Source: an uncultured Candidatus Saccharibacteria bacterium
Lineage (GTDB): Bacteria; Patescibacteriota; Dojkabacteria; SC72
DNA length: 64,000 nucleotides
Direction: 5' to 3'
Assembly: GCA_964351475.1 (NCBI GenBank)
Contig: CAYGOB010000001.1
Coordinates: forward strand, 4,459-68,458
The notes beneath the pieces are model-generated. The model saw nothing but the letters and a program-made list of their open reading frames with translations. It ran no database searches and was not told the DNA's origin. Positions 8,444-26,777 of this stretch are shown here, piece after piece. Positions within the stretch are counted from its first letter, which is position 1; each line of letters begins with the position of its first letter. The position numbers and the translations under genes were made by a program.

Positions 8444-11400
8444 ATGATTAATGCCCTAAAAGAATATTTTTTAAAGCCAAGATTTCATATATCTAGGTTT
8501 GAGTTTAATTTAATAGGAACACTGTTTTTAACAATAGGATTGGTAGTAGGTACATATTTAGGATTGTACAATGTATTTAAGGGATTAAGAGCATTTAATG
8601 ATACTATACATGTATGGGAGTATAGTGAAGAGAATATATCAGAATATATATATGATGATAGTATAGTAGGTATTAATGATGAAGGATTGTATGCACCATC
8701 TAATAGGTTAGAGAATGGAGGGTTTGAGGAGGGGTTGGGGGGGTGGAGTAAGAAGGGAGAATATATCCTTAATGATGAATTTACTACAGATAGAGTAGCA
8801 GGAGAGGTAGATGGTACATCTGCTGAACCTACTGGGGGAACAAGGACGGTAATTGATTCGGAAGATTTTATTTCTATAGGAGAAGGAGTGTTAAATGTTG
8901 CGGGTGGAACTGGTACTGAAGGAGACCCAGGTCTTTGGTATCCCTTAGCAATAACCAGGATCCCAGGGAGAATGATTGTAGGTACAATAAATCTGTCAAC
9001 ATTAGGAAACACTCGTTTTGGTTTTGACCTTAACACAAGTGGAGGAATTAATTTTGGTATTAATTTTGGGAGTTCTAGTAGTTTGGCTCTTTACGATGGT
9101 TTATCTTCAGTAAACGTTGGGAGTGCATTATCTACTGATACGAATTATCAACTTGCAGTTATTTTACGTTCCACTGGTACATATTATTACATTAAGGGTG
9201 GGACTTTTGTTAACTGGACTCTATTATGGATAAGTGATAATGCCTCAAATAGCACTGTTTATCCCACAATTGTAGGTAGAACTGGAATTTTCACCGCTGA
9301 CAATATCCGTATCCCCACCCAAACCTGGCTACCTACCCCCTTAGTACATGATACATTTACAAGAGTTAATGGTAATGTAGGTAGTAGTGAAATAGTAGGG
9401 CCAGATGGACAAGAAACACCACAGTTACAATGGAGTTCAGGAGAGATAGAAGATAATAGGATGGTTATTAGACCAGAGTTAGGGGAGGAGGTTATCGTAA
9501 ATGGGGATATGTCTTCTTCAGAGGGTTGGAGTGTAGGTTCAGATTGGTCAATAGCCGACGGCATTGCTTCCAAAGTTGCTGGTACTACGAACCAGAATAT
9601 CTCCCAAGGTGTTCTTACTTCGGGATTATGGTACCAGGCAGTTTGGACACTAGAACGTTCAGCTGGTTCTTTCTGGGCCATGTTTGGTACAACTGCTTTG
9701 ACATATAGTCACACTACCTCTGGGACTTTTACTGAAACAGCACGGGCAAATGGGGGAACAGCAGGTATACGTGGACAATCTGTGGCGGAAGGCTCGGTGG
9801 ATAACGTCTCGTATAAACCCCTTACCCTCTCCTCCCTCTTTTCTACAGTTTCAACTTCGGATGCGGATGTGATTGCGGATGTTAATATAACAGTAACCGC
9901 AGGGACACAGGCGGGATTGGTACTGAATTTGGATAACACTTCAAGCCCTGCTAACTTCATCATTGTATATACAAATGGAACCCAAATCCGTGTAGATGAG
10001 GTTGTGAATGGTGTTTATACAAATAAACAGACTACATCATCCACTTTTACATCTGGGAATTTAAGAGTAATTAAAGATGGTACTAAATACAGAGTATATT
10101 ACAACAATGTATTGGTAGGTACTGAACAAACAATAACAGATGAAAGTATAATAAATAATACTAATCATGGACTATTTTCAACCTACGAAGGTAATAGCTT
10201 TGATAATTTTACAATATGGCCAAGAACAGGATTTACAGATGCACCATTTGAAGAATTAACACCAAGTATAGATACAGAAATAAAATACAAAGGTACTAAT
10301 TCAGTAAAACTTCAAACAGGGGGAGTGGATGCTAACTATTTACAAACAACAAACCTAGGAGATACAGAGATATATACATTAACAGGATATGCATATACAG
10401 ATGGTAGTGAAGTAAGTAGTGAAGATATTAGTTTGTATTATGATAATGACATACTAGAAACAAGATATATAGATATGGGAGAAGGATGGTATAAGTTAGA
10501 AGGAGAAGTAATAGGAGAGGATAGTGAAAAGAGTTTTGGAGTAAGAGTAAAAGCAAATAGGACAGTATATATAGATGAGTTTAGTTTGTATAGAAAGATA
10601 AATAGGATAGATAATGGTATGTTTATAAATGGGTTAGAGGGGTGGAATGAGCAATCACCTAGCGACATAGAAGATCTATTAACATGGATAGATTTTTCAG
10701 ACAAAGATACATTATTTATTAATACAGGGGGGACAACTCCTGTTAATGTAGACGGAGATTTAATATATAGGGTAGCAGATAAAAGTGATGGAAATGATTA
10801 TTGGTATGCTATTAGTGCTGGGGTAAGACCTGTATATAAGGAGAACCAGCTCAATGGATTAAGTGCAGCACATTTTCCTGCTGGAAATTATTTAAGAACG
10901 ATTAATAGTTATGGTACTTATAATAAATCCATATTTACAGTAGCAAGACTTTTAATAGATGAAAACAAAAGAAATCTTTACAACAGGGTGTCATATAATT
11001 TTTGGACGCGTGATGGTGCGATACATCTTGGCAGAGATAGCTATATATCTGTGCCTGCTGTTTCTGATACAAACTACATAATTACTGCTTTATGGGATAC
11101 AGGTTCTAATGCTAGGTTAAGGCTCAATCGGGGGATAGAAGAAGCTACAGGAATTGCGGAAGGTTGGGCTTCAAATTATATGTGGCATCTTATGTCTACA
11201 GCAGCTGAAGAAGGAGGAGAAGGATACATATATGAAAGCATTATTTATGACAGGATATTATCAATCGAAGAGTATACAGCAGTTGAGTCATATCTTAATA
11301 ACAAGTGGTTTCTAAACTCTTCTCTCTCAACCACCACCAAATACACCGGTCCCTCCTCCGCCCAACTTCAAACATCAGACTCTGATGCTACCTTCGTCCA

Positions 11401-14400
11401 ATACCTAAACCTAGCTAACACCGACACCTACACCCTTACTGCATACGCATATACAGACGGTAGCCCAGTAACAACCGATGACATTAATCTGTACTTTGAC
11501 AATGACATACTCCCTACAACCTTTTTAGATGCAGGTAATGGTTGGTACAAACTAACAGCTACTCTAACAGCAACAGACTCTTACAAAGCCTTTGGAGTAC
11601 AAGTAAAAGCAAACAAAACAGTAAATGTAGACAATTTTAGTTTAGACAGAGGAGAGCGATATGTAATATATACATCCAATGCATACACAAATGAAACAAT
11701 GACAAGTTGGGATACCTTCTGTGAAGGAGATTTGGAATACCAAACCTGTACCCCTGACTCAACACAAGAAGGCTACTCAGAAATCAGATACCAACTCTGT
11801 ACAGACGATGGGTCAGTGTGTGAAAGTGAAAACAAATGGCAATACTGGAATGGTACAGAGTGGGTAGTAGCAACTGATTTGGACATACACAACAACAGTG
11901 CAAGTGATCTAACCCAACAAGTAATGCAAACAATAGATACGGAAAACAAAAAACTCTCTGTTAAAACAATACTAACCTTTGATGGATACAATCCTCCCAT
12001 ATTACCTAAGGTATCCATAGGACTGAGTGCAGATACAATACCACCAGAGACAAATGCAAGTAACCTAATCATGAAAACACAACCAGGAGGAAGAACCATA
12101 ACTAACGAAGGCTGGAACAATACTCTAATGCCATACATTACCTGGACCCAAGGAGCAGACAACAAAGGAGGCTCAGGCCTTAAAGGCTACTGTGTATACC
12201 TAGGCCAAGATCAAACTGCAGACCCTCAAACTAGTAAAGGAATACTAGGAGAATCTCCAGTAGACTTAGAAACCTCCACCTGTGGATTCATAGTAGAGGA
12301 TAATATACTAGATCTAAGTAATACAGACTACCATTCAGAACCATGGCTAACTAGTTCAACAGAACCCTACTACCTAAAAGTAAAAGCCATAGACAGAGGA
12401 AACAATGTGTACGAAGGAGAAAGTGAAACCTTTACATTCTACATAGATACAACACCTCCTACTAATGTATCCTTCCTTTCTTGTGCTTCAGGTAATTTCT
12501 CTAATGCTTTGGATATGAATTTCTCTTGGCCAACAACAGCAGGCCCAGAAGCAAAAGATGATTACTCAGACATACTAGGTTGGCAATACAAGCTTAATGA
12601 TATTAATGCACAGTGGAAAGGTACTCAAACACACACAGGATTAGAAATTGAATACATACCTCTTGGTCAATCAATATATACCCTTAAACAAAGTGATGCA
12701 GAAACAATCATATCAGGAAGTAATGTAGTTTACTTTAGAAGTGTAGACAATGTAGGTAACTTTTCATCAGGAGCAACCATTAGAACATGTAGCATATCCT
12801 ACGGAGGAGCAGCTCCTAACTTTGAAGATACAGACAAAGTAACAATTACTCCTAATATATCCCAAGACAACCAATACTCTTTAAGCTGGCCAAGTGCCAC
12901 CCCCGCTCCAGAAACCCAAGTATCTAAATACTACTACATGATAAATACAGCTCCTCCCTCAACACTTTCAACCTTAGAAGCAAACCCAGCAACATACATT
13001 AACAATTCAACATCAACAGCAGTACCTTTAAGAGCACTCCCTAATGTAAACAAAGGAGTAAATACAGTGTATGTAGTTTCTGTAGATAACAGTGAGATAC
13101 CTAACTACTCTCCAAGTAATTACATAACAGGAACATTTACTCTTAATTCAACAGACCCAGACAATGTAGGAGATTTAGTAGCATCAGACTCATCCATAAA
13201 GTTAAAATCTCAATGGAATGTAACCCTAACTTGGGTAGTACCAGAATACAAAGGAGCAGGTAATTTAACGTATGAGATATACAGGTCAACTAATGGAGTA
13301 GACTTTACACATGTGGGATCAACCTCAGGACTTTCATATGTAGATAGTGCACCTCAGTCACGTATGTATTTTTACAAGGTATATACTAAAGACGGAGCAA
13401 ATTCTTTAAGTTCAGGGAGCAATGCAGTATCCATAACACCAACAGGAAGATGGACAACGCCACCAGAACTCATATCCGAGCCTGAGGTAGAGAATGTAAC
13501 AACACAAAGAGCAACGATAGTGTGGTCTACATCTAGGTCAGCAGACAGTAGAATTCAGTTTGGAACACAGAGTGGTAAGTATGCAGATGTAGAACCTTCA
13601 ACACCTAATCATGTAACCTCTCATGTAATGTCTCTTTCAGGATTAACCCCTAATACAACATATTTTTACAGAGCAAAATGGACAGATGAGGATGGTAATG
13701 TAGGTATTTCAGAAGAAAAAACATTTACAACAGCACCACCACCGGTAATTAAACAAGTAGAAGTAAGAAATATTGGATTAGAGTCTGCAGTAGTTAACTT
13801 TACATCAGAGGGAGCTTCGGGAGTTAAGATATATTACGGAAGAACATCCTCTTTTGGGGGAATTAGAGAGATATCAACCTCTAGTTTAGAGTCTACCTAT
13901 TCAGTAGAACTCTCTGATTTAGAGGACGGTACTAGATATTACTTTAAGATTAATACTTTAGATGTGGATGGTAGTGAATACGACAACCAGGTTAACGAGT
14001 TCCAAACCTTACCTCGTCCTCGAGTAAGCAATGTAAGATTACAACAGGTATCAGGTACAGCACAAAGTACAATACTAGTAACATGGGATTCAAATACAGA
14101 GATATCATCCATAGTGACATACTGGCCAGAAAACAATCCATCTCAAGCAAGAGATGAGGTATCAGTAGAGTTAAAGAAAGGAGAACACAGAATGATGATT
14201 AGAGGATTAGAACCTACAACTGCATACAATCTCCAAGTAAAAGGAAGAGACAAGATGGGTAATGAGGCTGTATCAGATACCCAAAGATTTACAACAGCAA
14301 CAGATACAAGACCTCCAGTAATTACAGATTTAAGAGTAGAAGGTTCAACCATCCCTCCATTTGCAACAACAGCCCAACAGACCTCAGTACAGATAGTGGT

Positions 14401-14692
14401 ATCATGGACAACAGATGAGCCAGCTACAAGTCAGGTAGAGTTTGGAGAGGGTACAGGTAGTACGTATGCACAAAGAACACAGAAGGATTCTAATTTTAGT
14501 TACAATCATACAGTAGTAATATCTAACTTAGTACCATCTCAGGTATATCATCTTAGAGCAGTATCAGAGGATATGGCAGGTAATGTAGGGTATTCCATAG
14601 ATGTAGTAACAATAGCACCTAAGGTAACAGACAATGCCCTAGATTTAGTAATACAGAATTTAATGGAGACATTTAGATTTTTAAGAAGGTAG
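8444..14692 (+). CDS. Giant (2082 aa) signal-anchored surface protein. It has an N-terminal ConA/LamG-like region, two CBM-like jelly-roll modules, an Ig/Fn3-like central region and four C-terminal purple-acid-phosphatase-N-type Fn3 domains.
   Basis: N-terminal TM (LIGTLFLTIGLVVGTYLGLY). Two internal paralogous modules (KYKGTNSVKLQTGG...FGVRVKANRTVYIDEFSL and KYTGPSSAQLQTSD...FGVQVKANKTVNVDNFSL). Four repeats of the type ATIVWSTSRSADSRIQFG...YFYRAKWTDEDGN...TFTTA. The C-terminal ~1000 aa are collinear with ORF 21535-24630. Confidence 0.8.
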   Translation: MINALKEYFLKPRFHISRFEFNLIGTLFLTIGLVVGTYLGLYNVFKGLRAFNDTIHVWEYSEENISEYIYDDSIVGINDEGLYAPSNRLENGGFEEGLGGWSKKGEYILNDEFTTDRVAGEVDGTSAEPTGGTRTVIDSEDFISIGEGVLNVAGGTGTEGDPGLWYPLAITRIPGRMIVGTINLSTLGNTRFGFDLNTSGGINFGINFGSSSSLALYDGLSSVNVGSALSTDTNYQLAVILRSTGTYYYIKGGTFVNWTLLWISDNASNSTVYPTIVGRTGIFTADNIRIPTQTWLPTPLVHDTFTRVNGNVGSSEIVGPDGQETPQLQWSSGEIEDNRMVIRPELGEEVIVNGDMSSSEGWSVGSDWSIADGIASKVAGTTNQNISQGVLTSGLWYQAVWTLERSAGSFWAMFGTTALTYSHTTSGTFTETARANGGTAGIRGQSVAEGSVDNVSYKPLTLSSLFSTVSTSDADVIADVNITVTAGTQAGLVLNLDNTSSPANFIIVYTNGTQIRVDEVVNGVYTNKQTTSSTFTSGNLRVIKDGTKYRVYYNNVLVGTEQTITDESIINNTNHGLFSTYEGNSFDNFTIWPRTGFTDAPFEELTPSIDTEIKYKGTNSVKLQTGGVDANYLQTTNLGDTEIYTLTGYAYTDGSEVSSEDISLYYDNDILETRYIDMGEGWYKLEGEVIGEDSEKSFGVRVKANRTVYIDEFSLYRKINRIDNGMFINGLEGWNEQSPSDIEDLLTWIDFSDKDTLFINTGGTTPVNVDGDLIYRVADKSDGNDYWYAISAGVRPVYKENQLNGLSAAHFPAGNYLRTINSYGTYNKSIFTVARLLIDENKRNLYNRVSYNFWTRDGAIHLGRDSYISVPAVSDTNYIITALWDTGSNARLRLNRGIEEATGIAEGWASNYMWHLMSTAAEEGGEGYIYESIIYDRILSIEEYTAVESYLNNKWFLNSSLSTTTKYTGPSSAQLQTSDSDATFVQYLNLANTDTYTLTAYAYTDGSPVTTDDINLYFDNDILPTTFLDAGNGWYKLTATLTATDSYKAFGVQVKANKTVNVDNFSLDRGERYVIYTSNAYTNETMTSWDTFCEGDLEYQTCTPDSTQEGYSEIRYQLCTDDGSVCESENKWQYWNGTEWVVATDLDIHNNSASDLTQQVMQTIDTENKKLSVKTILTFDGYNPPILPKVSIGLSADTIPPETNASNLIMKTQPGGRTITNEGWNNTLMPYITWTQGADNKGGSGLKGYCVYLGQDQTADPQTSKGILGESPVDLETSTCGFIVEDNILDLSNTDYHSEPWLTSSTEPYYLKVKAIDRGNNVYEGESETFTFYIDTTPPTNVSFLSCASGNFSNALDMNFSWPTTAGPEAKDDYSDILGWQYKLNDINAQWKGTQTHTGLEIEYIPLGQSIYTLKQSDAETIISGSNVVYFRSVDNVGNFSSGATIRTCSISYGGAAPNFEDTDKVTITPNISQDNQYSLSWPSATPAPETQVSKYYYMINTAPPSTLSTLEANPATYINNSTSTAVPLRALPNVNKGVNTVYVVSVDNSEIPNYSPSNYITGTFTLNSTDPDNVGDLVASDSSIKLKSQWNVTLTWVVPEYKGAGNLTYEIYRSTNGVDFTHVGSTSGLSYVDSAPQSRMYFYKVYTKDGANSLSSGSNAVSITPTGRWTTPPELISEPEVENVTTQRATIVWSTSRSADSRIQFGTQSGKYADVEPSTPNHVTSHVMSLSGLTPNTTYFYRAKWTDEDGNVGISEEKTFTTAPPPVIKQVEVRNIGLESAVVNFTSEGASGVKIYYGRTSSFGGIREISTSSLESTYSVELSDLEDGTRYYFKINTLDVDGSEYDNQVNEFQTLPRPRVSNVRLQQVSGTAQSTILVTWDSNTEISSIVTYWPENNPSQARDEVSVELKKGEHRMMIRGLEPTTAYNLQVKGRDKMGNEAVSDTQRFTTATDTRPPVITDLRVEGSTIPPFATTAQQTSVQIVVSWTTDEPATSQVEFGEGTGSTYAQRTQKDSNFSYNHTVVISNLVPSQVYHLRAVSEDMAGNVGYSIDVVTIAPKVTDNALDLVIQNLMETFRFLRR

Positions 14693-16575: not shown

Positions 16576-17172
16576 ATGAAAACCTTAAAACTTTTAAAAA
16601 AGTTAAACCTAATTTTCTCCATTATAATAGTTGTTATTGCTATTTATATTCTAATATATCCTCTTATACCAGAAATAGCTTTTAGAATGAGTGCTAATAA
16701 ATTCCAGGGATATGCATATCAATCTACAAAGACGATAGAAGTTTTACAAGAGGAAGCTAAAGAACTTCCTCCAATACCTGAAGATAATAGACTTGTTATT
16801 CCTAAAATCTATGTAAATGCTCCAATAGTAGATGGAGAAGATGAGTCAGTCTTAGATTTTGGTATGTGGCGTATTCCAAATACAAGTACTCCAGACAAAG
16901 GGGGCAATACAGTTATTGCTGGTCACAGAACTCTGTATACAAGTGGTCCAGATACCTTATACAATTTAGATAAGATTGAAATAAATGATTTACTATTGGT
17001 ATATTGGCAAGGTAAGGAATATGTATATAAGGTTTATGATATTACAGAGGTGAGTTCGGAGAGTATGGAAATTTTAGATAATACAATAGATTCAAGAATT
17101 ACTTTATTTAGTTGTACACCAAAATGGACATCAGAACAAAGATTGGTAGTAAAAGCCACTCTTCAACAATAA
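16576..17172 (+). CDS. Sortase-family transpeptidase.
   Basis: N-terminal TM. Catalytic His in VIAGHRTLY. TLxTC-type Cys motif ITLFSCTP. Conserved Arg near the C-terminus (EQRLVVKA). Confidence 0.8.
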   Translation: MKTLKLLKKLNLIFSIIIVVIAIYILIYPLIPEIAFRMSANKFQGYAYQSTKTIEVLQEEAKELPPIPEDNRLVIPKIYVNAPIVDGEDESVLDFGMWRIPNTSTPDKGGNTVIAGHRTLYTSGPDTLYNLDKIEINDLLLVYWQGKEYVYKVYDITEVSSESMEILDNTIDSRITLFSCTPKWTSEQRLVVKATLQQ

Positions 17173-17265: not shown

Positions 17266-18231
17266 TTATCTCTCTTTGGAAGTTCTTGACGAGAACATAG
17301 TTTCTCTTCGAGATAATACCAACAGAAGGGTAGAGATACCTGCAAGTACTAATATTACTATATTCCATGTAATTCCTTTTGTACTTAAAGTAGTACCATT
17401 TGTACCTGGTAATTTAGCGGTAGTATCTGTGCTTGTGTCTGTGGTTGTGGTCGTGGTTGCAGAGGCTACACATATCTCACTAGTAATAGTATCTGAATCT
17501 AATGTAACCGCAGCATTTCTAGCTAATAATCTTCCATAAACTGTTACGTCGGTGGTAGCAGAGATTGATGTTAATGCCATTATGGTTCCTACAAACGTTG
17601 AGCCTGTACCAAGTGTTGCAGAACTTGTAACTTGCCAGAAAACATAACATGATTGAGCACCATTTATAAGTCGGACTTCACTGCCAGAAGCAGTTACTAA
17701 ATCTGAAGAAGCTTGAAAAATGAAAACTGCATTTGGATCTCCCTGAGCATCAAGTATTAATGGGCTCTCAGCTGTTATATTTGCGGTTGTAGCATTTCCA
17801 AAAGCATAAACACCTGAAGTTAAGGTTTGTCCACCAAGTTGGTTATCTACATCAGTAAATGTTTGAGTTGGTGTTCTACCAGCAGCATCAAGATAGGCGG
17901 TTGTAAGATCGTTTTTAGCTTGAGTTAACAAATCAGGATTATTTACTGATCCTGCAGGTCCGGATGCATCTACAGAATAAATAGTTCCAGTTACTTCCTC
18001 AGCTGTTAGACCAGCATAATTACTACCAGAGGCAGGACTTAAACCAACATCTCCTGTAATAATAGAAGTTGGAATATTCGTAATTTCTGTACCAGCTAAA
18101 ACTGCAAAACTTTCAGCAGTACCAAGATTTACTGTTGTTAGTGCAGTTTGAGCATTTACAAGTTGAATTCCAATTATAGCAATAACAAAAGATACAAGCA
18201 TTGTTATTGAAATCTTACTAAATGTTCTCAT
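17266..18231 (-). CDS. Ice-binding-like (DUF3494) surface protein with a Thr-rich stalk and a C-terminal cell-wall sorting signal.
   Basis: Signal peptide. DUF3494 signature AESFAVLAGTEITNIPTSIITGDVGLSPASG. Linker ATTTTTTDTSTDTT. Then KLPGTNG motif, hydrophobic helix ITWNIVILVLAGISTLLLVL and positively charged tail SRRETMFSSRTSKER. Convergent with the sortase gene. Confidence 0.75.
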   Translation of the reverse strand: MRTFSKISITMLVSFVIAIIGIQLVNAQTALTTVNLGTAESFAVLAGTEITNIPTSIITGDVGLSPASGSNYAGLTAEEVTGTIYSVDASGPAGSVNNPDLLTQAKNDLTTAYLDAAGRTPTQTFTDVDNQLGGQTLTSGVYAFGNATTANITAESPLILDAQGDPNAVFIFQASSDLVTASGSEVRLINGAQSCYVFWQVTSSATLGTGSTFVGTIMALTSISATTDVTVYGRLLARNAAVTLDSDTITSEICVASATTTTTTDTSTDTTAKLPGTNGTTLSTKGITWNIVILVLAGISTLLLVLSRRETMFSSRTSKER

Positions 18232-18336
18232 TGAAAAGCCCCACTAAACTTATTAATTACAACATAATTGTAATCTTTTATATTTTAAGGGTTTTAAGGA
18301 GAAATGTCAATTTTTGAAGGTTTTCTACTAATGATT

Positions 18337-18391
18337 GATATTGGCGGGACATACACGTCTGGAACCTAGAATGAGACAAATAAGACAGTAT
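18337..18391 (+). repeat. Interspersed promoter-bearing repeat, copy G (right half plus a short left stub).
   Basis: gatattggcgggacatacacgtctggaacctagaatgagacaaataagacagtat, followed by aaaaaggggaggg. Upstream of the DGR target gene. Confidence 0.7.
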
Positions 18392-18514
18392 AAAAAGGGG
18401 AGGGTATATGTCTCAAATTTGTTTTTTGAACCTTTTGTGAATAAGTTGGGATGCAAGTATGCAACCGACACATCTTCTTGCAAAATATTTTTATTTCTTG
18501 TAAATTATACTAGG

Positions 18515-19393
18515 ATGCAAAAAACAAACAAGAATAAAGAGATGACCAAGTTAGAAACAGTACTAATTATTTTGATAGCCATAGCAACTATTGGATCATT
18601 TCTGGCAGGAAGGGCAGTAGCAGAACAACATGAGGGTACTCCTAAAGCAGATTCAACCTCAATAATAAAACAACTATCCGATGACCTTACAGCACTAGGA
18701 TACGGTTCAACTGAACCAGGTAGTTGGGGCAATGCTGGTGAAATGTGGAATAGGATATATTCAGCAGGAGTATGGGTACCATCTTTAGCAGATGCTCAGG
18801 ACTCAGATGTAGTATCTGGAAAACAATTCTATTCAGGCTCTGACCGCACATTGAGAACAGGCTCTTTTCAAACTATAGATTGGGAGAAACAATCTCTACT
18901 TCAAATGGATAACAGGGATAGTACAGACTATGGAGAGACAAGTAGTTGGGACAAGACTAATAATAGCCCAGAGGTTTGGTATGATGAGGTAACAGGTTTG
19001 TATTGGAGTGCAAGTCAGGGTAGTATGGCAAATGATTTTGTAAGGTCTACCTGTGATTTTTACACTACAGTCCCAAGAGGAGATTATAATGGGGGGGATG
19101 AGAGTTGTGATGCCGCAATAAATCATTGTGCAACATTGAGCCTAGCTACACATACAAATGCTTCAGCAAAGACAGATTGGTATTTACCATCTCAGATAGA
19201 GTTAATGCAGGCATACATAAATGGAATATACAAGAAGACCAGTACTGGTTGGGTTACTACAAGCCAATTTTGGTCTAGTACCGAGTTTCAGAGTTATCCT
19301 ACTATTGCATGGGGCACTTACCTAGGTAATGGACAGACGAGCCCTCATACTAAGACCACGAGCCTCGCTGTTAGGTGTGTTCTCCGGGATTAA
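18515..19393 (+). CDS. DGR target (variable) protein: signal-anchored, with a C-terminal DUF1566 (Lcl-C / C-type-lectin-like) domain carrying the variable region.
   Basis: DUF1566 signature DWYLPSQIELMQAY...FWSSTE...AWGTYLGNG...TSLAVRCVLRD. The track ORF starts at 18335 inside repeat copy G, so the start is more likely the M at 18515 (MQKTNKNKEMTKLETVLIILIAIATIGSFLAG). The last 123 nt are homologous to the TR. Confidence 0.8.
   Translation: MQKTNKNKEMTKLETVLIILIAIATIGSFLAGRAVAEQHEGTPKADSTSIIKQLSDDLTALGYGSTEPGSWGNAGEMWNRIYSAGVWVPSLADAQDSDVVSGKQFYSGSDRTLRTGSFQTIDWEKQSLLQMDNRDSTDYGETSSWDKTNNSPEVWYDEVTGLYWSASQGSMANDFVRSTCDFYTTVPRGDYNGGDESCDAAINHCATLSLATHTNASAKTDWYLPSQIELMQAYINGIYKKTSTGWVTTSQFWSSTEFQSYPTIAWGTYLGNGQTSPHTKTTSLAVRCVLRD
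19267..19389 (+). other. DGR variable region (VR) at the 3' end of the target gene.
   Basis: 123-bp homology to 19721-19843. About 19 of 20 mismatches fall at positions that are A in the TR. The last 41 bp (19349-19389) are identical to the TR. Confidence 0.85.
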
Positions 19394-19483
19394 ATACTAT
19401 AGGGCGTTTGGTTGTGGGTATTTTAAATATTTCCCCTTTTTCTTTTTGTAATACCTATTTTAAAATCAAAACAACGCCCGATT

Positions 19484-19505
19484 TACAGTGTATTTATACA
19501 CTGTA
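19484..19505 (+). terminator. Perfect 9-bp palindrome hairpin downstream of the VR (tacagtgta-ttta-tacactgta) followed by an AT-rich tract.
   Basis: Seen directly. Weak intrinsic terminator for the target gene, or the DGR VR-proximal structural element. Confidence 0.35.
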
Positions 19506-19720
19506 ATTTAAAATTTAAAAAATTCCTTGCAACATACTAATTAATATGCAACAATTATCATAAGCAAGATCTTACAATCTCAACTCCAAAGATGAGCAAT
19601 GGGTTGTGAGGGAGGCATAATATTTAATCCTACTTGCTGTACCTATTAGGTAATGTTATACAAAGAATCTTCTGTTTAATACATCAGGTTCTTGGTGGAT
19701 TTAAAAATTAGCAAGTTTAG

Positions 19721-19843
19721 ATTTTGGTCTAGTACCGAGAATCAGAATAATACAACTAATGCATGGAACACTAACCTAAATAATGGAAATACGAACAATA
19801 ATACTAAGACCACGAGCCTCGCTGTTAGGTGTGTTCTCCGGGA
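19721..19843 (+). repeat. DGR template repeat (TR).
   Basis: Homologous to the VR. The TR is dense in AAT/AAC codons and reads FWSSTENQNNTTNAWNTNLNNGNTNNNTKTTSLAVRCVLRE in the VR frame. Track ORF 19692-19892 is this TR, not a gene. Confidence 0.85.
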
Positions 19844-19852
19844 GAAGATATT

Positions 19853-20215
19853 ATGCCTCAGGCAAATAATACAGACAAACCCTTATATTTAGCTGTGTAC
19901 AAGCTCATTATCTATCTGTATAGTATAGTTCACAATCTTCCAAAAGAACATAAGTATAGATTAGGAAATGACATCATAGACATTAGTTGGAAGACCCTAG
20001 ATTCCATAATGTACACAAATACATTAGGAAACGAAGATAAACATATCCAGATAAAGAAAACCTTAGCAATATTTAATACCTTAAAATATAGGTTAAGGGT
20101 TTTAAGTGATTTAAAACTCTTAAGTCATAGGCAATATGCACACATAATTAAACAAACGGTAGAAATAAATAAAATGCTAAGGGGTTGGTACAATTGGTCT
20201 AAAAAACTTGTATGA
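19853..20215 (+). CDS. avd: Avd-like accessory variability determinant (small four-helix-bundle protein).
   Basis: About 121 aa, basic and helical (YKLIIYLYSIVHNLPKEHKYRLGNDI...LKLLSHRQYAHIIKQTVEINKMLRGW). Sits immediately 3' of the TR, the position typical of DGR avd. Start chosen at the M after a GGGAGAAG SD-like stretch. Confidence 0.55.
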   Translation: MPQANNTDKPLYLAVYKLIIYLYSIVHNLPKEHKYRLGNDIIDISWKTLDSIMYTNTLGNEDKHIQIKKTLAIFNTLKYRLRVLSDLKLLSHRQYAHIIKQTVEINKMLRGWYNWSKKLV

Positions 20216-21382
20216 GTCTTGAGGTTCTAAATAGGACTTCAGTATCCCAAAATGCTTTTCATATATATTCTTCCTTAAACGATACGAGTTACTCCATCTT
20301 AGGTGTCCAAAAGTAGAGTTAATACTTGTACAGATAGATTCAAGATCTTCTTTAGAAGGAGGTAATTTAATCTGGACAGCCTCTTCAATACAAAAACGTC
20401 TGTTTATGAGAAAACCGTTATTAAAGTAATGTAATTTTTTCTTCAGATTTCCAACTGTCCTGTTTCTGGATAGTATATATTCTGGTCTAATAACATATCC
20501 TACAAAATCAATCCCCTGATACACGCTACCATAGGTGGTTTTTTCTTTCTTTGTATTTAGTTTTAATTTTTCTAAAAGAAAATTCTCTGTTAGTTTCTCT
20601 GCTTTTTGTAATTCTTTTATGTTATTACTAATCAAAAGCATGTCATCGGCGTATCTTAAATAGTATTTGATTTTTAATTGACGCTTAATGAATTGATCTA
20701 CTTCATTTAGATACAAATTAGCAAAAAACTGTGAAGTCAAGTTCCCTATAGCTAAACCTTTCTTTTTGGGTATAGTAAAGAGGCTTTTACCTTTGGGTAG
20801 AAGCTGTAAGAGTGTTTTGTCTCCCTGTAATTCGAAGTCTTGGCAGGGGTTGTGATAAATGATCTTCATAGAAAGCCACGTTAGGTCGTCAATATCTTTT
20901 GTTGGCATAGGAAGTTTTGAGAGATCCTTCAAAAGTATTTGAGCAAGTATATCTTTATCTATGGAGTAGAAGAAACTTCTAATATCCATTTTAAGGTAAT
21001 ATGCTTTAGAGGTATTATTATGTGTGATCTTATTAAGAAAACTAGATGTTCGTTGAACACCTAGTAAGCCACCTTTATTTTTTCTACAAGCAAGAGAGTC
21101 AAAGATAAATTTTTTATCTATTTCATCTTGAATGTACATGATTAGTAAGTGATGAATAATTCTGTCGTTAAAGTAGGCGGCAAATATTTCACGAATGGTA
21201 GGGTAAGATATTACAAAGCATGAGGAGGTCCCTATTTCATAACTTTTTTCTCTGAGAGCAGTTGATAGGATGTGGAGGGTGTCTTCATAATCTAATTCAC
21301 AATAGAGTGCATGATTACTATTTCTTTTGCCTTTTCTACAAGAATAATATGCTCTAAGTAAGGATGAGAGATTAAAAATCAT
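20177..21382 (-). CDS. DGR reverse transcriptase.
   Basis: RT motifs: LAIGNLTSQFFANLYLNEVD (the DGR-specific I/LGxxxSQ motif 4, in place of the group II intron QGxxxSP) and YLRYADDMLLI (YADD catalytic box). 401 aa. Adjacent to the TR/avd. Confidence 0.9.
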   Translation of the reverse strand: MIFNLSSLLRAYYSCRKGKRNSNHALYCELDYEDTLHILSTALREKSYEIGTSSCFVISYPTIREIFAAYFNDRIIHHLLIMYIQDEIDKKFIFDSLACRKNKGGLLGVQRTSSFLNKITHNNTSKAYYLKMDIRSFFYSIDKDILAQILLKDLSKLPMPTKDIDDLTWLSMKIIYHNPCQDFELQGDKTLLQLLPKGKSLFTIPKKKGLAIGNLTSQFFANLYLNEVDQFIKRQLKIKYYLRYADDMLLISNNIKELQKAEKLTENFLLEKLKLNTKKEKTTYGSVYQGIDFVGYVIRPEYILSRNRTVGNLKKKLHYFNNGFLINRRFCIEEAVQIKLPPSKEDLESICTSINSTFGHLRWSNSYRLRKNIYEKHFGILKSYLEPQDSYKFFRPIVPTP

Positions 21383-21534
21383 CTCTGATATTATATCATT
21401 AGGTCCTTGGGATTAACACAAAACTAATTTTCTTCTATTTGCCGTACTCTATTTTTAAAAAGACTCAATGTGTTAAACTCTATATAGTCTGTATTCTTGT
21501 CTTTTAAGCGATCTAATGCTAAACTTTTTCTAAC

Positions 21535-24500
21535 ATGAAAAAACCTGTCCGGATAAATATAAAAATACCAGCATTAACGTTACTCCTCTTCGCTATTATA
21601 GGTATATCAATATTCTTCCTCTCCAGAGTATATGCTACCAACCAAACTCCAATTAAAGGAAGTGCTACTGTACTAAATACCTCTAATGAAATATTCTTTA
21701 CCTCTAGTGTATATGGAGCTAACGTAGTAATATCGGATCCAGACCCCGAAGATGAAAACAAACGTACAATCTCTGGATATGCATGGTCTCAAGATATTGG
21801 GTGGATAAAGTTTACTGCAGGAGAATCCCCTGGGGTATTTGTAGATTATGCAACAGGACAAGTAAGTGGTTCTGCCCATGTAATGAACACAGGTAATGAA
21901 ATTAAATTTGATTCTAACAACAGTAATACAATTGTTAATACAAATACTGGAGTATTTAGTGGATATGTTTGGTCTGAGGATGTAGGGTGGATAGATTTGG
22001 GAACAGACCAAGTATATGTCCAAGACACACTACCTCCTCACAACCCAGATGAAATATCAATATATTCAGATGGAAGTAGAACAAAAGAGATTGTGATTTT
22101 GGAAGGAAATGTTTACAACTACAGTAATCCCCATATAGAGTGGGAAGAACCCATAGATCCCAGCACAGAATCTCACGGTTATCAGTCTAGTGGCATATCA
22201 GGATACTACGTATATTGGGGGCCAAGTAATACAGCTATACCCACAAGCTCAGGTACTTTTCAAACAGATAATTACATAGATGTAGAAGTAACCCAAAGTG
22301 GTATGCACTACTTAAACATTCAAGCAGTAGACAATCACGGAAATATACATACCAATCCTGAACATGAATATACTGTTTTAGAGTACAAAGCAGACATTAT
22401 TCCCCCAACCAATGTTAAATACATAACTACACCAAGTGGAAATTTTGGAAATGTTAATGACATGTTCTTTAGTTGGCCAAGTGCTCCAGGAGTAGCAAGC
22501 AGTGATGAAAATGGAATACTCGGATGGCAGTACAGTCTTAACGATGTCAGCAGTTGGACAGGAACCCACGAAAGTGAAAGATTTGACCTTGAGTACATAC
22601 CATTTGAAGATACTACCTACTCCCACTACTTTACAGAAGAAAAAGACCTGGGAAATATGGTAGTAGGTAACAACATCATATATTTTAGAACCATAGACAA
22701 TGCAGGCAATTTTAGTGGGTATATATCTGGAGGAATCTCATACGGAGGTTTGGCTCCTACCTTTGGAGAAGAACACAATGTGACTGTAACTCCCAACACC
22801 AACACCTCTAACGAATTCTCTCTCTCATGGCCCTCTGCCACACCAGAGGAGGGAAGAACCATAGTCTCATATTACTATATGATAAATAGAACACCTCCTA
22901 GCACATACAATACTTTAGTAGACAACCCCTCTCTTTATGTCCCTGTTACAACAACATCTGTATCTACAAGGATGTTAAACGGAGCCGTAAAAGGAAGCAA
23001 CACAGTATATGTCGTAGCTGTAGATGACTTAGATGGATACTCTCCAAGCAACTTTATTACTGGCACATTTACCCTTAACAGCACTCTCCCAGACCCTGTA
23101 ATTAACCTAAGTATAGCAGACACCTCAATACGTGAAGCCAAACTATGGAGAGCAAGTTTAACTTGGGAGGCTCCTGCTTACAAAGGAGATGGTAACCTCT
23201 CCTACGTTATACAAAGAAGCCTAAATGGTAGTACATGGGCTACGGTAGGTTCAACAACAGGAACGTCATTTTCTGACATTGTCCCAGAAAGTAGAACATA
23301 CTATTACAGAATAGGGGTCTCTGATGGTTCTGACCAAAGCATAGCAAATCCAACCCCCTCAACCACAGTATCCTCCTTTATTCAAGGAAGATACACAGAA
23401 GCACCAGAGTTACTCTCTGGAATCATAGTATCTAATGTCGGAACAAGAAAAGCTACAATATCGTGGGTAACAAGTAGAGAAAGTGATACTAAAATTGCAT
23501 TCGGACTAAGTAGTAATGACTACTTTGAAGAAGAAGTATACAGTTCAAAACAGGTAACAGAGCATGAAATAACGCTACATAATCTCCAACCTGAAACGAC
23601 ATACTACTTCAAAGCCAGATGGACAGACCAAGACGGCAATACAGGAGAAAGCAAAGAAGTCTCCTTTAGAACAACTGACTCTCCCCAAGTTTACTCTTCA
23701 AATGTAGATATGGTTGGGCTAGATTATGCCATAATATCCTTTGAGGTCTTTGGTGCTAGCAAAGCAGCCGTAGTATATGGAAGGTCTCTAGCATATACAG
23801 CAATTGAAGAGATAAACACCTCTCCTGCAAGAAGCAAATACTCTGTAGTTTTGGAAGACCTAGACGATGGGGTTGAATACAATTTCAAAATTAGGTTAAC
23901 AGATGCAGATGGATATATCTATGACTCCATAGAAAACAACGTCTTTAGAACACCTCCTAGACCACAGATATCGAATGTACGAGTACAAGAATTAAGAGAG
24001 GTAGCAAGTCCCACAGTCGTATTTAGTTGGGAAACAAATACACATACTAACTCAATAGTTAGATTTAGAGAAGATTTTGAAGGTGCAAGAGAAAGAGACC
24101 AAGTAAGTATGGAAAAAATAAAGGGAGAGCATGAGATGACATTAACAGGACTGGATTCAGAAACCCCATATATTGCCTATGTAGAAGGAGTAGATGACTA
24201 TGGTAACAAAGCAGTATCCGAGGGCGTGAGATTTACTACCGATGTAGATACCAGGCCGCCTAAAATATTGAATGTGAAAATTGAGCAGGACTTACAAGGT
24301 CGCTCTGTACAAACTGACAGAAGCAGAAGTGCCCAATTCATTATTAGTTGGGAAACGGATGAACCAGCAACAAGCAAGATAAATTATGGAGAAGGAGGGG
24401 GAGGAGCATATACCTCTAGTTCAAGATTAGACCAAGAGTACAGAATGAAACATCTTGTCATAGTATCTGGTCTAACACCTTCAAAAGTATATAGTTTAGA

Positions 24501-24630
24501 AATTGAATCCACCGATCCATCAGGAAACACAGGCAGATACGGTCCACTAGTATCCATAACTCCAAAATCTGCTAATACTGTTTTAGAAACAATACTCAAT
24601 ACTATGTCAAATATGTTTAATATATTCTAA
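21535..24630 (+). CDS. Large (1031 aa) secreted Fn3/PAP-N-repeat surface protein, paralogous to the C-terminal half of ORF 8444-14692.
   Basis: Signal anchor (ALTLLLFAIIGISIFFL). Collinear similarity to 8444-14692, for example IPPTNVKYITTPSGNFGNVNDMFFSWPS...GWQYSLND...YFRTIDNAGNFS...SYYYMINRTPPSTY...TGTFTLNST, and four ATISWVTSRESDTKIAFG-type domains. Its stop overlaps the start of the downstream ABC gene. Confidence 0.8.
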   Translation: MKKPVRINIKIPALTLLLFAIIGISIFFLSRVYATNQTPIKGSATVLNTSNEIFFTSSVYGANVVISDPDPEDENKRTISGYAWSQDIGWIKFTAGESPGVFVDYATGQVSGSAHVMNTGNEIKFDSNNSNTIVNTNTGVFSGYVWSEDVGWIDLGTDQVYVQDTLPPHNPDEISIYSDGSRTKEIVILEGNVYNYSNPHIEWEEPIDPSTESHGYQSSGISGYYVYWGPSNTAIPTSSGTFQTDNYIDVEVTQSGMHYLNIQAVDNHGNIHTNPEHEYTVLEYKADIIPPTNVKYITTPSGNFGNVNDMFFSWPSAPGVASSDENGILGWQYSLNDVSSWTGTHESERFDLEYIPFEDTTYSHYFTEEKDLGNMVVGNNIIYFRTIDNAGNFSGYISGGISYGGLAPTFGEEHNVTVTPNTNTSNEFSLSWPSATPEEGRTIVSYYYMINRTPPSTYNTLVDNPSLYVPVTTTSVSTRMLNGAVKGSNTVYVVAVDDLDGYSPSNFITGTFTLNSTLPDPVINLSIADTSIREAKLWRASLTWEAPAYKGDGNLSYVIQRSLNGSTWATVGSTTGTSFSDIVPESRTYYYRIGVSDGSDQSIANPTPSTTVSSFIQGRYTEAPELLSGIIVSNVGTRKATISWVTSRESDTKIAFGLSSNDYFEEEVYSSKQVTEHEITLHNLQPETTYYFKARWTDQDGNTGESKEVSFRTTDSPQVYSSNVDMVGLDYAIISFEVFGASKAAVVYGRSLAYTAIEEINTSPARSKYSVVLEDLDDGVEYNFKIRLTDADGYIYDSIENNVFRTPPRPQISNVRVQELREVASPTVVFSWETNTHTNSIVRFREDFEGARERDQVSMEKIKGEHEMTLTGLDSETPYIAYVEGVDDYGNKAVSEGVRFTTDVDTRPPKILNVKIEQDLQGRSVQTDRSRSAQFIISWETDEPATSKINYGEGGGGAYTSSSRLDQEYRMKHLVIVSGLTPSKVYSLEIESTDPSGNTGRYGPLVSITPKSANTVLETILNTMSNMFNIF

Positions 24631-26777
24631 TGCCAAAAAAGAAACTAATAAGTGTTAAAAATATAAATAAGAGCTTTCTCCTAGGTAAAAGAAGAAACAA
24701 TGTTCTTAAAGATATAAATCTAGATATCTATTCTGGTCAACTAACAAATATCTTTGGACCATCAGGATGTGGTAAATCTACACTTCTAAACGTCATCATG
24801 GGTATAGAGAAGCCAGATACAGGCATTGTAAAGATACATGACGAAGATCTATGGAAGAAAAACACCGACGAACAAGCAGACATAAGAAAAAGAGAAATTG
24901 GAATAGTATATCAACAACAAAACTGGGTAAGGTCATTGACAGTCATAGAAAACGTTGCTCTTTCTGCACAGCTCTTAGGGTTTGGTAAGGCAGAATCCTT
25001 ACAAAGGGCACAAGAGGTATTAAAAGAAGTGGGAATGTTTAAATTTAGAAACTTCTACACCTCAGAACTCTCCTCAGGAGAACAACAAAGGGTTGGTTTA
25101 GCAAGAGCCCTCATAGCCGACCCAGAAATTATCCTAGCAGATGAGCCAACAGGGAACCTGGATACAGAAAATGGGGATGAGGTTGTTAAAATATTGAAGA
25201 GTTTAGCTAAAAAAGGCAAAGCTGTAGTTTTAGTAAGTCACAATCCCGAATATTTGGACACTTCTGACACTATAGTAATTATGAAAGATGGCTATATCAT
25301 TGACTCTCTCAAACAACAAGAGGGAATTGTAAAAAAAGTTAGAACTATTTTAGCCCAAACAGAATTAAACAACGAAGAGAAAATCTTTGAAAATGCTAGG
25401 AGCAAACCAAACATATCTCAACCATACTATCCCACAGAAACCCTATTTGAGAAAATCAAAGTATATTCTAGGTTAATTTACAGCTTCTTTTACAAATCTT
25501 TGCTACTTTTTGTAATATCTGCTCTTACAATTTTCAATCCTACTAAAGCAGAAGAATTTAGAAAGAAAGCAACTGTTACAGGGGAGAATAATATCCCTAT
25601 CCTAGATCTAACAGAGCTCTCTTTTAAAAACCTTTTCTTTAAAAAATTCAGAACGGTAGTAACAATATTGGGAGTAGGATTAGGTACGGGTTTTGTAGTT
25701 TTACTTCTCTCACTGGGTTACGGTATGGAGAGGTTAGTTATTGATCAGATAACAGCGGCAGAAGACTTAAGTCAGGTTGATGTTTTTCCTAAAGTTGGAA
25801 GCCAATTAGAACTAACCGATGCACTTATTGAGAAGATTGCAGGTATATCTGGAATAGATACAATATATAGAATAAAAAACTTCCCAGGGAGGATAGATTA
25901 CAAAGGCTCTACAGTAGATGTAGTAGTGTATGGAGTAGAGTTTGAATATTTAGAAAATTCTCCTGTTAGAAAAGTGGCAGGTGAATTCTTAGAAGAAGAG
26001 TCAGACAAATACTCTGCAATTGTTAACAAAGAATATGTTGATTTACTAGGGTTGTTGGGGGATGACGTAGTAGGAGAGAGATTAGATTTAAGTGTCATTC
26101 AGTCCATGCCACAGGAAGACAGTGAGCCTCAAAACATTCTAGCCCAGGTATTAGGTGTTGTTGAAGATGATTCTCCTCCTGTCGTATATCTTAAAATGGG
26201 CTCAGTTAGGGACTATACCACTGATGAGTATTCTGAATTGACAATAGTTGTTAACAGAGATGTTTCCTTGGAGGTAGTTAGAAAGCAGATAGAGTCTTTA
26301 GGGTTAGAGACTTTTTCTGTAATGGATACAATAGAGCAAGTACAAAACATTTTCACCTATGTAAGATATGGGTTGTTAGGTTTTGGGGTATTGGCTTTTG
26401 CCATAGCATTTTTAGGTATGATAAATACATTGGTTGTTTCATTACTTGAAAGAACTAGAGAGGTTGGGTTATTAAAAATTATTGGTATGAAGAGAAATGA
26501 TATTAGGTTTTTGTTCATAATTGAGTCTATGTTTATTGGACTTTTGGGGGGTATAACAGGTGTTATTCTGGGTGTTCTTGGTGGATATTTAGTATCTATA
26601 CTGATATATCTTTTCTCAATGTCAAGAGGTGTAGAGTTTATGATAATTTCATCTTTCCCCCTCCTTATGATGATACTTGTTGTTTTTTGTACAACGATGT
26701 TAGGTTTCTTTACAGGTCTTTACCCAGCAAATAGGGCTGTTAAGATACCTCCTCTTGATGCAATTAGGTATGAGTAA
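24630..26777 (+). CDS. MacB-type ABC exporter, fused ATPase plus FtsX-permease.
   Basis: N-terminal Walker [10 protein letters not shown], signature [15 protein letters not shown], Walker [13 protein letters not shown]-terminal FtsX signature [31 protein letters not shown]. Translationally coupled to the upstream gene (TAATG). Confidence 0.85.

Follow-up and report, generated by a model that had tools for sequence, protein, structure and literature searches.

The systems closest to the locus described here are diversity-generating retroelements (DGRs), among them that of phage BPP-1, arranged mtd-avd-TR-Sp-brt, in which a template repeat (TR) is transferred to a variable repeat (VR) with changes specific to adenines. 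The RNA needed for cDNA synthesis in BPP-1 consists of an upstream segment of avd, the TR, and the spacer Sp, and it is this RNA itself that primes, from residue A56 of Sp, which is paired to the 3' end of the TR (Handa et al., bioRxiv 10.1101/2023.10.23.563531). Sp contains, in order, an Avd-binding stem-loop, the primer strand that carries A56, and one strand of a 'cPRT Stop' duplex, whose partner strand lies just upstream of the TR; the remainder of Sp comprises a short, adenosine-containing stem-loop, the single-stranded 'thumb ring', and a long stem-loop that binds the reverse transcriptase (RT) (Handa et al., bioRxiv 10.1101/2023.10.23.563531). We analyzed a stretch of 64,000 nucleotides from contig CAYGOB010000001.1 (positions 4,459 to 68,458; hereafter the window). 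Very probably, the locus that it holds between 18515 and 21382 is a complete and recently active DGR on the chromosome of an uncultured candidate-phyla (Dojkabacteria/WS6-like) bacterium. Its parts are the following:

18515..19393, + strand: target gene, an open reading frame of 292 aa with an N-terminal membrane-anchor helix and a C-terminal DUF1566/Lcl_C domain
19267..19389, + strand: VR, with a constant 5' block (19267-19285), a diversified tract (19286-19349), and a constant 3' block (19350-19389)
19721..19843, + strand: TR, with 45 A, chiefly in AAY codons, and a variable tract that is invariant in all sister contigs
19803..19843, + strand: 41-bp 3' block of the TR, identical to its VR copy at 19349-19389
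19853..20215, + strand: avd, 120 aa, starting 9 nt after the TR and overlapping the 3' end of the RT gene by 39 nt at its own 3' end
20177..21382, - strand: DGR-type RT, 401 aa, Pfam RVT_1, on the strand opposite to TR, VR, and avd

The locus resembles BPP-1 in its adenine-specific TR-to-VR transfer, in the presence of Avd, an RT with an IGxxxSQ motif, and a constant 3' block that bounds the variable tract, and in the position of the VR at the 3' end of the gene for a ligand-binding protein with a C-type-lectin fold. It differs in its order, target-TR-avd with the RT on the opposite strand, and in its target, which is a phage tail fiber in BPP-1 and a DUF1566/Lcl_C bacterial protein in the window. 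A 140-nt spacer follows the TR of BPP-1, whereas the TR of the window is followed after 9 nt by avd and has its structured RNA on the 5' side. The two also differ in that the window has no sequence difference of the kind that distinguishes the initiation of mutagenic homing sequence (IMH) from IMH*.

The target is of the same class as Legionella pneumophila LdtA, the 'CLec2 / DUF1566' class (Wu et al. 2018, PMC5758913), and has in common with it the VR consensus FWSST...AW...G...K...VRCV. Both are chromosomal surface proteins, and Avd is present in both systems. However, LdtA is an outer-membrane lipoprotein (Wu et al. 2018, PMC5758913), whereas the protein of the window has an N-terminal helix as its anchor. 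The Legionella DGR also differs in cassette order and strands and in its RT, which in the window is of the candidate-phyla type. Candidate-phyla bacteria are rich in DGRs, and as a DGR the present locus is ordinary. The cassettes of the candidate phyla radiation mostly have unusual orders (B3, TR-(avd)-RT), and their TR and RT may sit on different strands, so that an opposite-strand RT is not new in principle (Wu et al. 2018, PMC5758913). The window shares with these cassettes the host group and a compact form with Avd, but its order, target-TR-avd and then a convergent, overlapping RT, is unlike the B3 order of that survey.

Repeat pair and genes of the retroelement

Exact alignment of the VR (19267-19389) with the TR (19721-19843) was ungapped, at an offset of 454, and gave 18 mismatches. 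Seventeen of them were at TR adenines (A>T 6, A>G 6, A>C 5), and the remaining one was a T>G change at 19790. An earlier note on this DNA, which had compared the repeats by eye, had described an adenine-specific pattern with one difference at a TR T and none at C or G. The exact tabulation bears this out, although the totals given there (about 20 differences, about 19 of them at A) were slightly high; both of the translations that it quoted were correct. The homology extends over the full 123 bp and is not confined to the 41-bp block, and the mismatches are not spread over the four TR bases. Given 45 A among the 123 TR bases, the probability of at least 17 of 18 mismatches falling at A is 5e-8; when the calculation is restricted to the variable tract (32 A in 61), the bias has a P of 1.3e-5. 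Codon positions 1 and 2, which hold 39 of the 43 in-frame TR adenines, take 16 of the 18 changes, and the TR has AAT or AAC at 11 of the 12 codons that are changed. The pair belongs to the only long direct repeat of the region (19267-19400 and 19721-19854; 134 nt, 84%). No further VR-like copy or remote target was found within the window, as 77 of 78 non-A positions match in the VR and no more than 35 match elsewhere.

The VR occupies codons 252 to 291 of the 292 in the target gene, in frame, i.e., its last 40 codons, and the gene calls on sister contigs are likewise 292 aa long. The product matches Pfam Lcl_C (DUF1566) above the cut-off (E value of 1.2e-12). The AlphaFold model has a mean predicted local distance difference test (pLDDT) score of 89.4 and an N-terminal helix compatible with a membrane anchor, and the C-terminal domain is closest in the PDB to that of Legionella Lcl (8q4e), with many C-type-lectin-like domains next in rank. 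The target is thus predicted to be a membrane-anchored, C-type-lectin-like surface protein, in which diversification would let about 12 surface residues of the lectin-like domain vary rapidly.

The avd product matches Pfam bAvd with an E value of 3.9e-15 and 56.7 bits (cut-off, 40), and its start position is kept in relatives. A GTG at 19829, within the TR, was considered as an alternative start that would give 128 aa and was dropped; relatives conserve ATGCCTC at 19853, and in one relative (L011) a GTG stands in the same column. The RT carries the motifs IGNLTSQ (IGSLTSQ in the equivalent position of bRT) and YADD, and its I212, G213, S217, Q218, and Y244-D246-D247 are invariant in 22 relatives. 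Residues equivalent to R74 and I181 of bRT are also conserved, and invariant in the same 22 relatives. The nearest solved structure is that of Bordetella phage bRT (8ub7; E value of 4.5e-25), with group II intron RTs at 5e-7. NCBIfam has no curated DGR-RT model, and the protein scored far under the cut-off against all of the curated retron, Drt, and group II models (Retron St85, 60 of 235 bits; Drt3a, 57 of 200; group II, 75.5 of 300). The end of the RT gene lies 334 nt from the TR.

Variation among samples and the constant 3' block

The identical 401-aa RT is present on 23 public contigs, of which 10, from 10 metagenome samples, were taken for comparison; the 8 contigs with both repeats were compared together with the window. 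These sequences contained six distinct VRs, all accompanied by the identical RT. Each VR differed from its own TR at 13 to 21 positions, and 90 of the 95 differences in total were at a TR adenine, so that the further A-site variants for which the earlier note had proposed to look do occur in sister sequences. At least one VR was changed at 31 of the 45 TR adenines, often to different bases, whereas the variable tract of the TR was identical in all contigs. The VRs differed even among contigs with the same TR allele and the same flanking genes (L004, L008, L009, and L010). Six VRs with one TR tract and an identical RT indicate that the element has recently been active in nature, and the pattern is as expected of repeated mutagenic retrohoming and excludes that a duplicated fragment merely drifted. 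The locus is therefore a clean natural case of current activity, with one RT, one TR variable tract, and six VRs across samples. Relatives at about 60% RT identity, which are labeled Candidatus Dojkabacteria or candidate division WS6 where they are named, have the same cassette with A-specific VR/TR pairs of their own, in which 10 to 14 of 11 to 14 differences are at A. The components, the A-specificity, and the natural variation together fully support the interpretation of the repeats as the VR and TR of a DGR.

The non-adenine differences, about 5% of the total, are recurrent. T>G at 19790 was seen in the window and in L010 (ML8), C>A at 19796 and T>G at 19818 in L008 (JGI 3300001533 MLSed), and G>T at 19765 in L004. 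These changes may be RT errors at other bases or ordinary mutation.

The same data bear on whether this could be a fossil DGR, now inactive, in which the VR differences between samples are old, vertically inherited alleles. We regard this as very improbable. Activity is deduced from sequences, and the existence of two TR 3'-block alleles means that the contigs are not all one clone, both of which are in its favor. However, no component is broken, and every contig returned encodes an RT of 100% identity; the VRs differ at 13 to 21 A-sites despite a shared TR allele (L004, L008, L009, and L010), and TR polymorphisms have been copied into the VR. We give practically no credence to an origin without a retroelement, by which the 'TR' would be either a decaying partial duplicate drifting to A or a silent cassette for RecA-type gene conversion. 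The genome is AT-rich, and a duplication could yield direct repeats 454 bp apart, but drift would not confine the differences to one base on one strand (P = 5e-8), and the TR is constant while the VR takes T, G, or C at the same sites across samples. A single donor cassette cannot give six different recipients by gene conversion, and a DGR-type RT and Avd are kept together with the repeats across relatives of about 60% identity.

The 41-bp block at the 3' end is identical in the two copies (19349-19389 and 19803-19843), as the earlier note had stated, and has only these two occurrences within the window. Seven of its eight adenines were never changed in the six VRs, whereas variable-tract adenines were changed in about 44% of instances (90 of 6 x 34). 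For the 42 unchanged instances of block adenines, P is about 1e-11 by our arithmetic, with independence assumed, and this near-zero probability indicates that the block is protected. However, the first A of the block (19803) is altered in the VR of L004. Two block alleles are present among the contigs (19814 C/T and 19818-19819 CT/TA), and TR and VR carry the matching allele in each contig, with the exception of L008, whose VR has G at 19818. In L025, a template AAT equivalent to 19811-19813 reads GCT in the VR. The two repeats of every relative are the same up to the same final GGGA, and the sequence of the block varies between relatives, indicating concerted evolution.

We conclude that the transfer boundary is inside the block and not at its 5' edge, and that the block serves at the 3' end for homology and as a boundary, IMH-like in that sense. 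This retains one part of the earlier description of the block as an IMH-like priming region, namely, its role in homology and as a boundary. A location outside the transferred tract does not agree with the variation at 19803, the alleles that co-vary in TR and VR, and the changes in L025, and the strongest candidate for a priming duplex, 19846-19859 with 19612-19625, is found immediately outside it. The 3' part of the block encodes VRCVxRD, among the most conserved residues of the protein family, so that selection explains part of the constancy; K276, encoded further 5', is also nearly invariant. The constancy is probably due to selection together with the need for perfect homology at integration.

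Some of the results count against the interpretation as a complete and recently active DGR. The avd product scored under the cut-off of the NCBIfam model DivGenRetAVD (NF033474), with 63.6 bits against 80, at an E value of 1.7e-17. The VR differences between samples are differences between assembly consensus sequences, not reads. A comparison with IMH/IMH* pairs, which the earlier note had suggested, gave no TR/VR difference of the BPP-1 kind in the block; the two copies agree up to the last homologous base, and differences begin only in the flanks.

The RNA module 5' of the template repeat

The non-coding stretch between the target gene and the TR is 331 nt long. When loci of about 60% RT identity are compared, the spacer between VR and TR cannot be aligned in its 5' half, and the approximately 165 nt beside the TR are highly conserved. 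A structured RNA module was delineated in this part, with its elements drawn from RNAalifold and manual inspection:

19564..19716, + strand: RNA module of about 150 nt, directly 5' of the TR, marked by conservation and covariation
19570-19611, + strand: H1, a stem-loop
19612-19625, + strand: 'primer-side' strand, which pairs with 19846-19859
19626-19631, + strand: invariant linker AAUCCU
19632-19639 with 19709-19716, + strand: H2, with 4 nt between the end of its 3' strand and the TR
19640-19652, + strand: H3, a short hairpin
19659-19697, + strand: H4, a long interrupted stem-loop
19698-19708, + strand: A-rich linker
19846..19859, + strand: TR 3' flank AGAUAUUAUGCCUC, 14 nt, starting 3 nt after the TR, holding the avd start codon, and pairing with 19612-19625, for which it is the candidate template-side partner

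The pairing of 19612-19625 with 19846-19859 was present in the fold of the single sequence. In a model-free MAFFT alignment of eight loci, 97.1% of the cells were paired, and compensatory changes were found in 13 of 52 pairs, compared to 4.8 +/- 1.6 in shuffles (0 of 500 reached this number) and 2 to 4 with slid partners. Five of these 13 pairs belong to the long-range 14-bp helix, in which 92.9% of the cells were paired. We additionally surveyed 100 loci encoding relatives of the RT, for which a scan of genome contigs (14 loci) and a metagenome scan with an RT alignment were used; loci are cited here by their L numbers. Covariance models of a first and a second round detected the module in 24 of 98 related loci (99 sources with the window). 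In all 15 loci with an independently detected TR, the module abuts the 5' end of the TR on the TR strand, whatever the order and orientation of avd and RT; the order in L068, for example, is avd-module-TR-RT. In a comparison with 300 shuffled primers, the duplex of the module with the TR flank was stronger than 299 to 300 of them in the Dojkabacteria-like clade and stronger than all 300 in L073, L033, and L043, where the sequences are quite different. It was moderate in five further loci.

An Rfam search of 19380-20260 at an E value of 5 or less gave no match to the module region. The catalogued RT-associated motifs are thus all without a match, among them RT-10, the family placed in the TR-brt spacer of BPP-1 (Weinberg et al. 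2017, PMC5737381), so that the RNA of the window differs from BPP-1 in this respect as well. At gathering thresholds, Rfam returned tRNAs only. No BPP-1-like spacer RNA was found directly after the TR, where avd starts 9 nt on.

The module elements follow one another in the same order as those of the BPP-1 RNA, i.e., a stem-loop, a primer strand, a duplex by the 5' end of the TR, a short hairpin, and a long stem-loop; in the window, a linker separates the last two. From this order and from size and position, we lean toward mapping the elements of the module onto those of BPP-1, with H1 as the putative Avd-binding and H4 as the putative RT-binding element. The long-range duplex begins 3 nt beyond the last base common to TR and VR, which is where the start of the cDNA would be expected, and H2 is placed where its stop would be expected. 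With the steps taken over from BPP-1, a + strand transcript of about 19560-19860 or longer would be bound by the RT and by pentameric Avd, the RT being translated from a separate - strand mRNA. The duplex of 19612-19625 with 19846-19859, possibly lengthened by pairing of UCCU (19628-19631) with GGGA (19840-19843), would close the TR into a loop and set a nucleotide of the module beside the 3' end of the TR. Synthesis of cDNA would then be primed in cis, and the RT would copy the TR, misincorporating opposite adenines, until synthesis halted at H2. The cDNA would replace the VR via the constant blocks at both ends, with 19803-19843 as the IMH-like boundary.

We propose, with about even confidence, that the RNA scaffold for RT-Avd recruitment and cDNA priming is placed 5' of the TR, both here and in a large clade of candidate-phyla DGRs, so that the avd-TR-Sp order of BPP-1 is circularly permuted. 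A comparable topology is found in retrons. The structured non-coding part of the retron msr-msd RNA lies 5' of the template, and a duplex of this 5' region with the 3' flank of the template brings the priming nucleotide to the template 3' end. The placement of msr before msd resembles that of the module before the TR. In contrast to retrons, the window has an RT of another family with Avd as a partner, its template copies part of a gene, and the product serves retrohoming.

We consider it rather unlikely that the block 5' of the TR is instead a promoter and 5' leader, for example one that sequesters the ribosome-binding site and AUG of avd, with the priming element of a real DGR elsewhere, such as in avd or in trans. 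The 3' strand of the long-range helix holds the avd start codon and adjoins GGAG, which is in favor of a leader. Putative stem-loops are moreover present downstream of the TR in many DGRs, including those of candidate phyla (Handa et al., bioRxiv 10.1101/2023.10.23.563531). However, the module and the duplex also occur where the TR 3' flank is not the start of avd; in L073 and L033, this flank is antisense to the 3' end of avd, and in L048, L039, L049, and L068 the order is avd-module-TR. The helix ends exactly at the end of the VR/TR homology. Beyond ATGCCTC, the first 40 nt of avd showed poor DNA conservation among the aligned relatives, which is also not in favor of a leader.

For the scaffold proposal, there are also results on the other side. 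In eight distant loci, the duplex of the module with the TR flank was no better than shuffles, as would suit a leader, and the duplex is therefore not claimed for the whole clade. Compensatory changes in 34 of 40 pairs, and 96.4% of cells paired compared to 32 to 48% in slid controls, speak for the module, but they were obtained from covariance-model alignments, which are fitted to the structure of the model. The correspondence of H1 to H4 with BPP-1 elements is one of order and size only, and RT activity, transcript ends, and the priming site are all matters of deduction.

The DGR papers that we consulted do not describe an RNA module on the 5' side of the TR. Handa et al. (bioRxiv 10.1101/2023.10.23.563531) looked for such elements only in the 40 nt before and the 100 nt after the TR. 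The upstream layout appears to be undescribed, since it has no Rfam family and published surveys looked downstream of the TR. A DGR with a DUF1566-class target is itself of a known kind; the RNA 5' of its TR is uncatalogued and suggests a permuted, retron-like layout. If the proposal is true, an upstream scaffold would free the DGR genes to take any order and strand, including an RT convergent with avd. In many candidate-phyla DGRs, no space is left for a spacer beyond the TR, or the RT is not on the TR strand, and a 5' RNA is a testable answer to how a priming-competent ribonucleoprotein is assembled in them. Confirmation of the layout would establish a new form of the DGR mechanism, shared by many DGRs of candidate phyla. 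The covariance model of the module could also improve the annotation of DGRs and of the TR strand in metagenomes.

The base of H1 contains a palindrome, AAGATCTT (19565-19572), of which a second copy, AAAGATCTTT, is present in H4 of most relatives (L011, L028, L030, and L031). In its place, H4 of the window has AAAGAATCTTCT with compensating changes. The palindrome is a possible protein-binding or kissing site. An alternative pairing between the two AAGATCTT-like palindromes of H1 and H4 was considered and dropped, as it is not conserved in the window sequence. In L046, two tandem copies of the RNA module (920-1184 and 1444-1708), with the TR-like sequence repeated, lie upstream of a single avd.

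Cassette order and surroundings

The order RT> <avd <TR <VR is kept in the Dojkabacteria-like clade, at RT identities of at least 59%. Four other orders are present among distant candidate-phyla relatives, namely, RT> avd> <TR <VR; RT> <TR <avd <VR; VR> TR> avd> RT>; and VR> avd> TR> RT>, the last of which is the order of BPP-1. In all members of the clade, avd and RT are convergent, with their 3' ends overlapping by 36 to 39 nt (20177-20215 in the window; L025 to L031), so that the two mRNAs would be partly antisense. A scan of 18200-21600 for promoter and terminator consensus sequences gave 16 sites, compared to 14.2 +/- 4.5 in shuffles, i.e., no excess. Two RT/avd cassettes of differing architecture occur within 5 kb in L013 (1421-1610 and 4845-6260). 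L011 (CAYQYH010000062.1) is labeled uncultured Candidatus Saccharibacteria, but its cassette and RNA module are Dojkabacteria-like (62% RT identity, same order); this mismatch may be due to mis-binning or transfer.

Downstream of the VR, the window has two further structures:

19402..19506, + strand: inverted repeats downstream of the VR, with GGGCGTT (19402-19408) and AACGCCC (19473-19479) around a loop of about 64 nt
19483-19506, + strand: perfect 10-bp hairpin, which follows the GGGCGTT/AACGCCC repeat

The DNA fold of this region has a z score of -3.5. An inverted repeat starts 10 to 17 nt after the end of the VR at every locus of the clade (window, L011, L025, L027, L028, L030, and L031). 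In four loci, it is a co-varying stem of 6 to 8 bp around about 64 nt, followed by a conserved CCGATT; the stems are, for example, GGTCTTGG/CCAAGACC in L011 and GGGTTC/GAACCC in L027. The other form, in three loci (L028, L030, and L031), is a short hairpin of 6 to 11 bp with a 7-nt loop. A GC-rich inverted repeat after the VR is known in a minority of DGRs, 34% (Wu et al. 2018, PMC5758913). Candidate functions of the repeats are a DGR target-recognition (post-IMH) hairpin, a terminator of the target gene, and another small RNA.

The target gene lies in a cluster of cell-surface genes. Just upstream of it are a sortase gene (16576-17172) and, on the - strand at 17266-18231, a gene whose secreted, ice-binding-like product (PF11999) has a Thr-rich tail and a C-terminal anchor. 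Other neighbors encode two giant fibronectin-III proteins and a MacB-type ABC transporter. The DGR cassette always adjoins an operon of a fibronectin-III surface protein of about 1030 aa and a MacB-type ABC transporter (8444-14692 and 21535-26777 in the window; L025 to L031). It lies upstream of this operon in the window and downstream in relatives, where the target gene directly follows the transporter gene. Since the cassette is found at the same operon in relatives, on the other side, the element looks chromosomal and vertically inherited in this lineage. The position of a predicted membrane-anchored, lectin-like target beside the conserved operon for the giant fibronectin protein and MacB suggests a cell-surface role for the diversified protein. 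Attachment to hosts is the presumed lifestyle of the organism. The fibronectin-III surface protein also has a 2082-aa paralogue encoded in the window.

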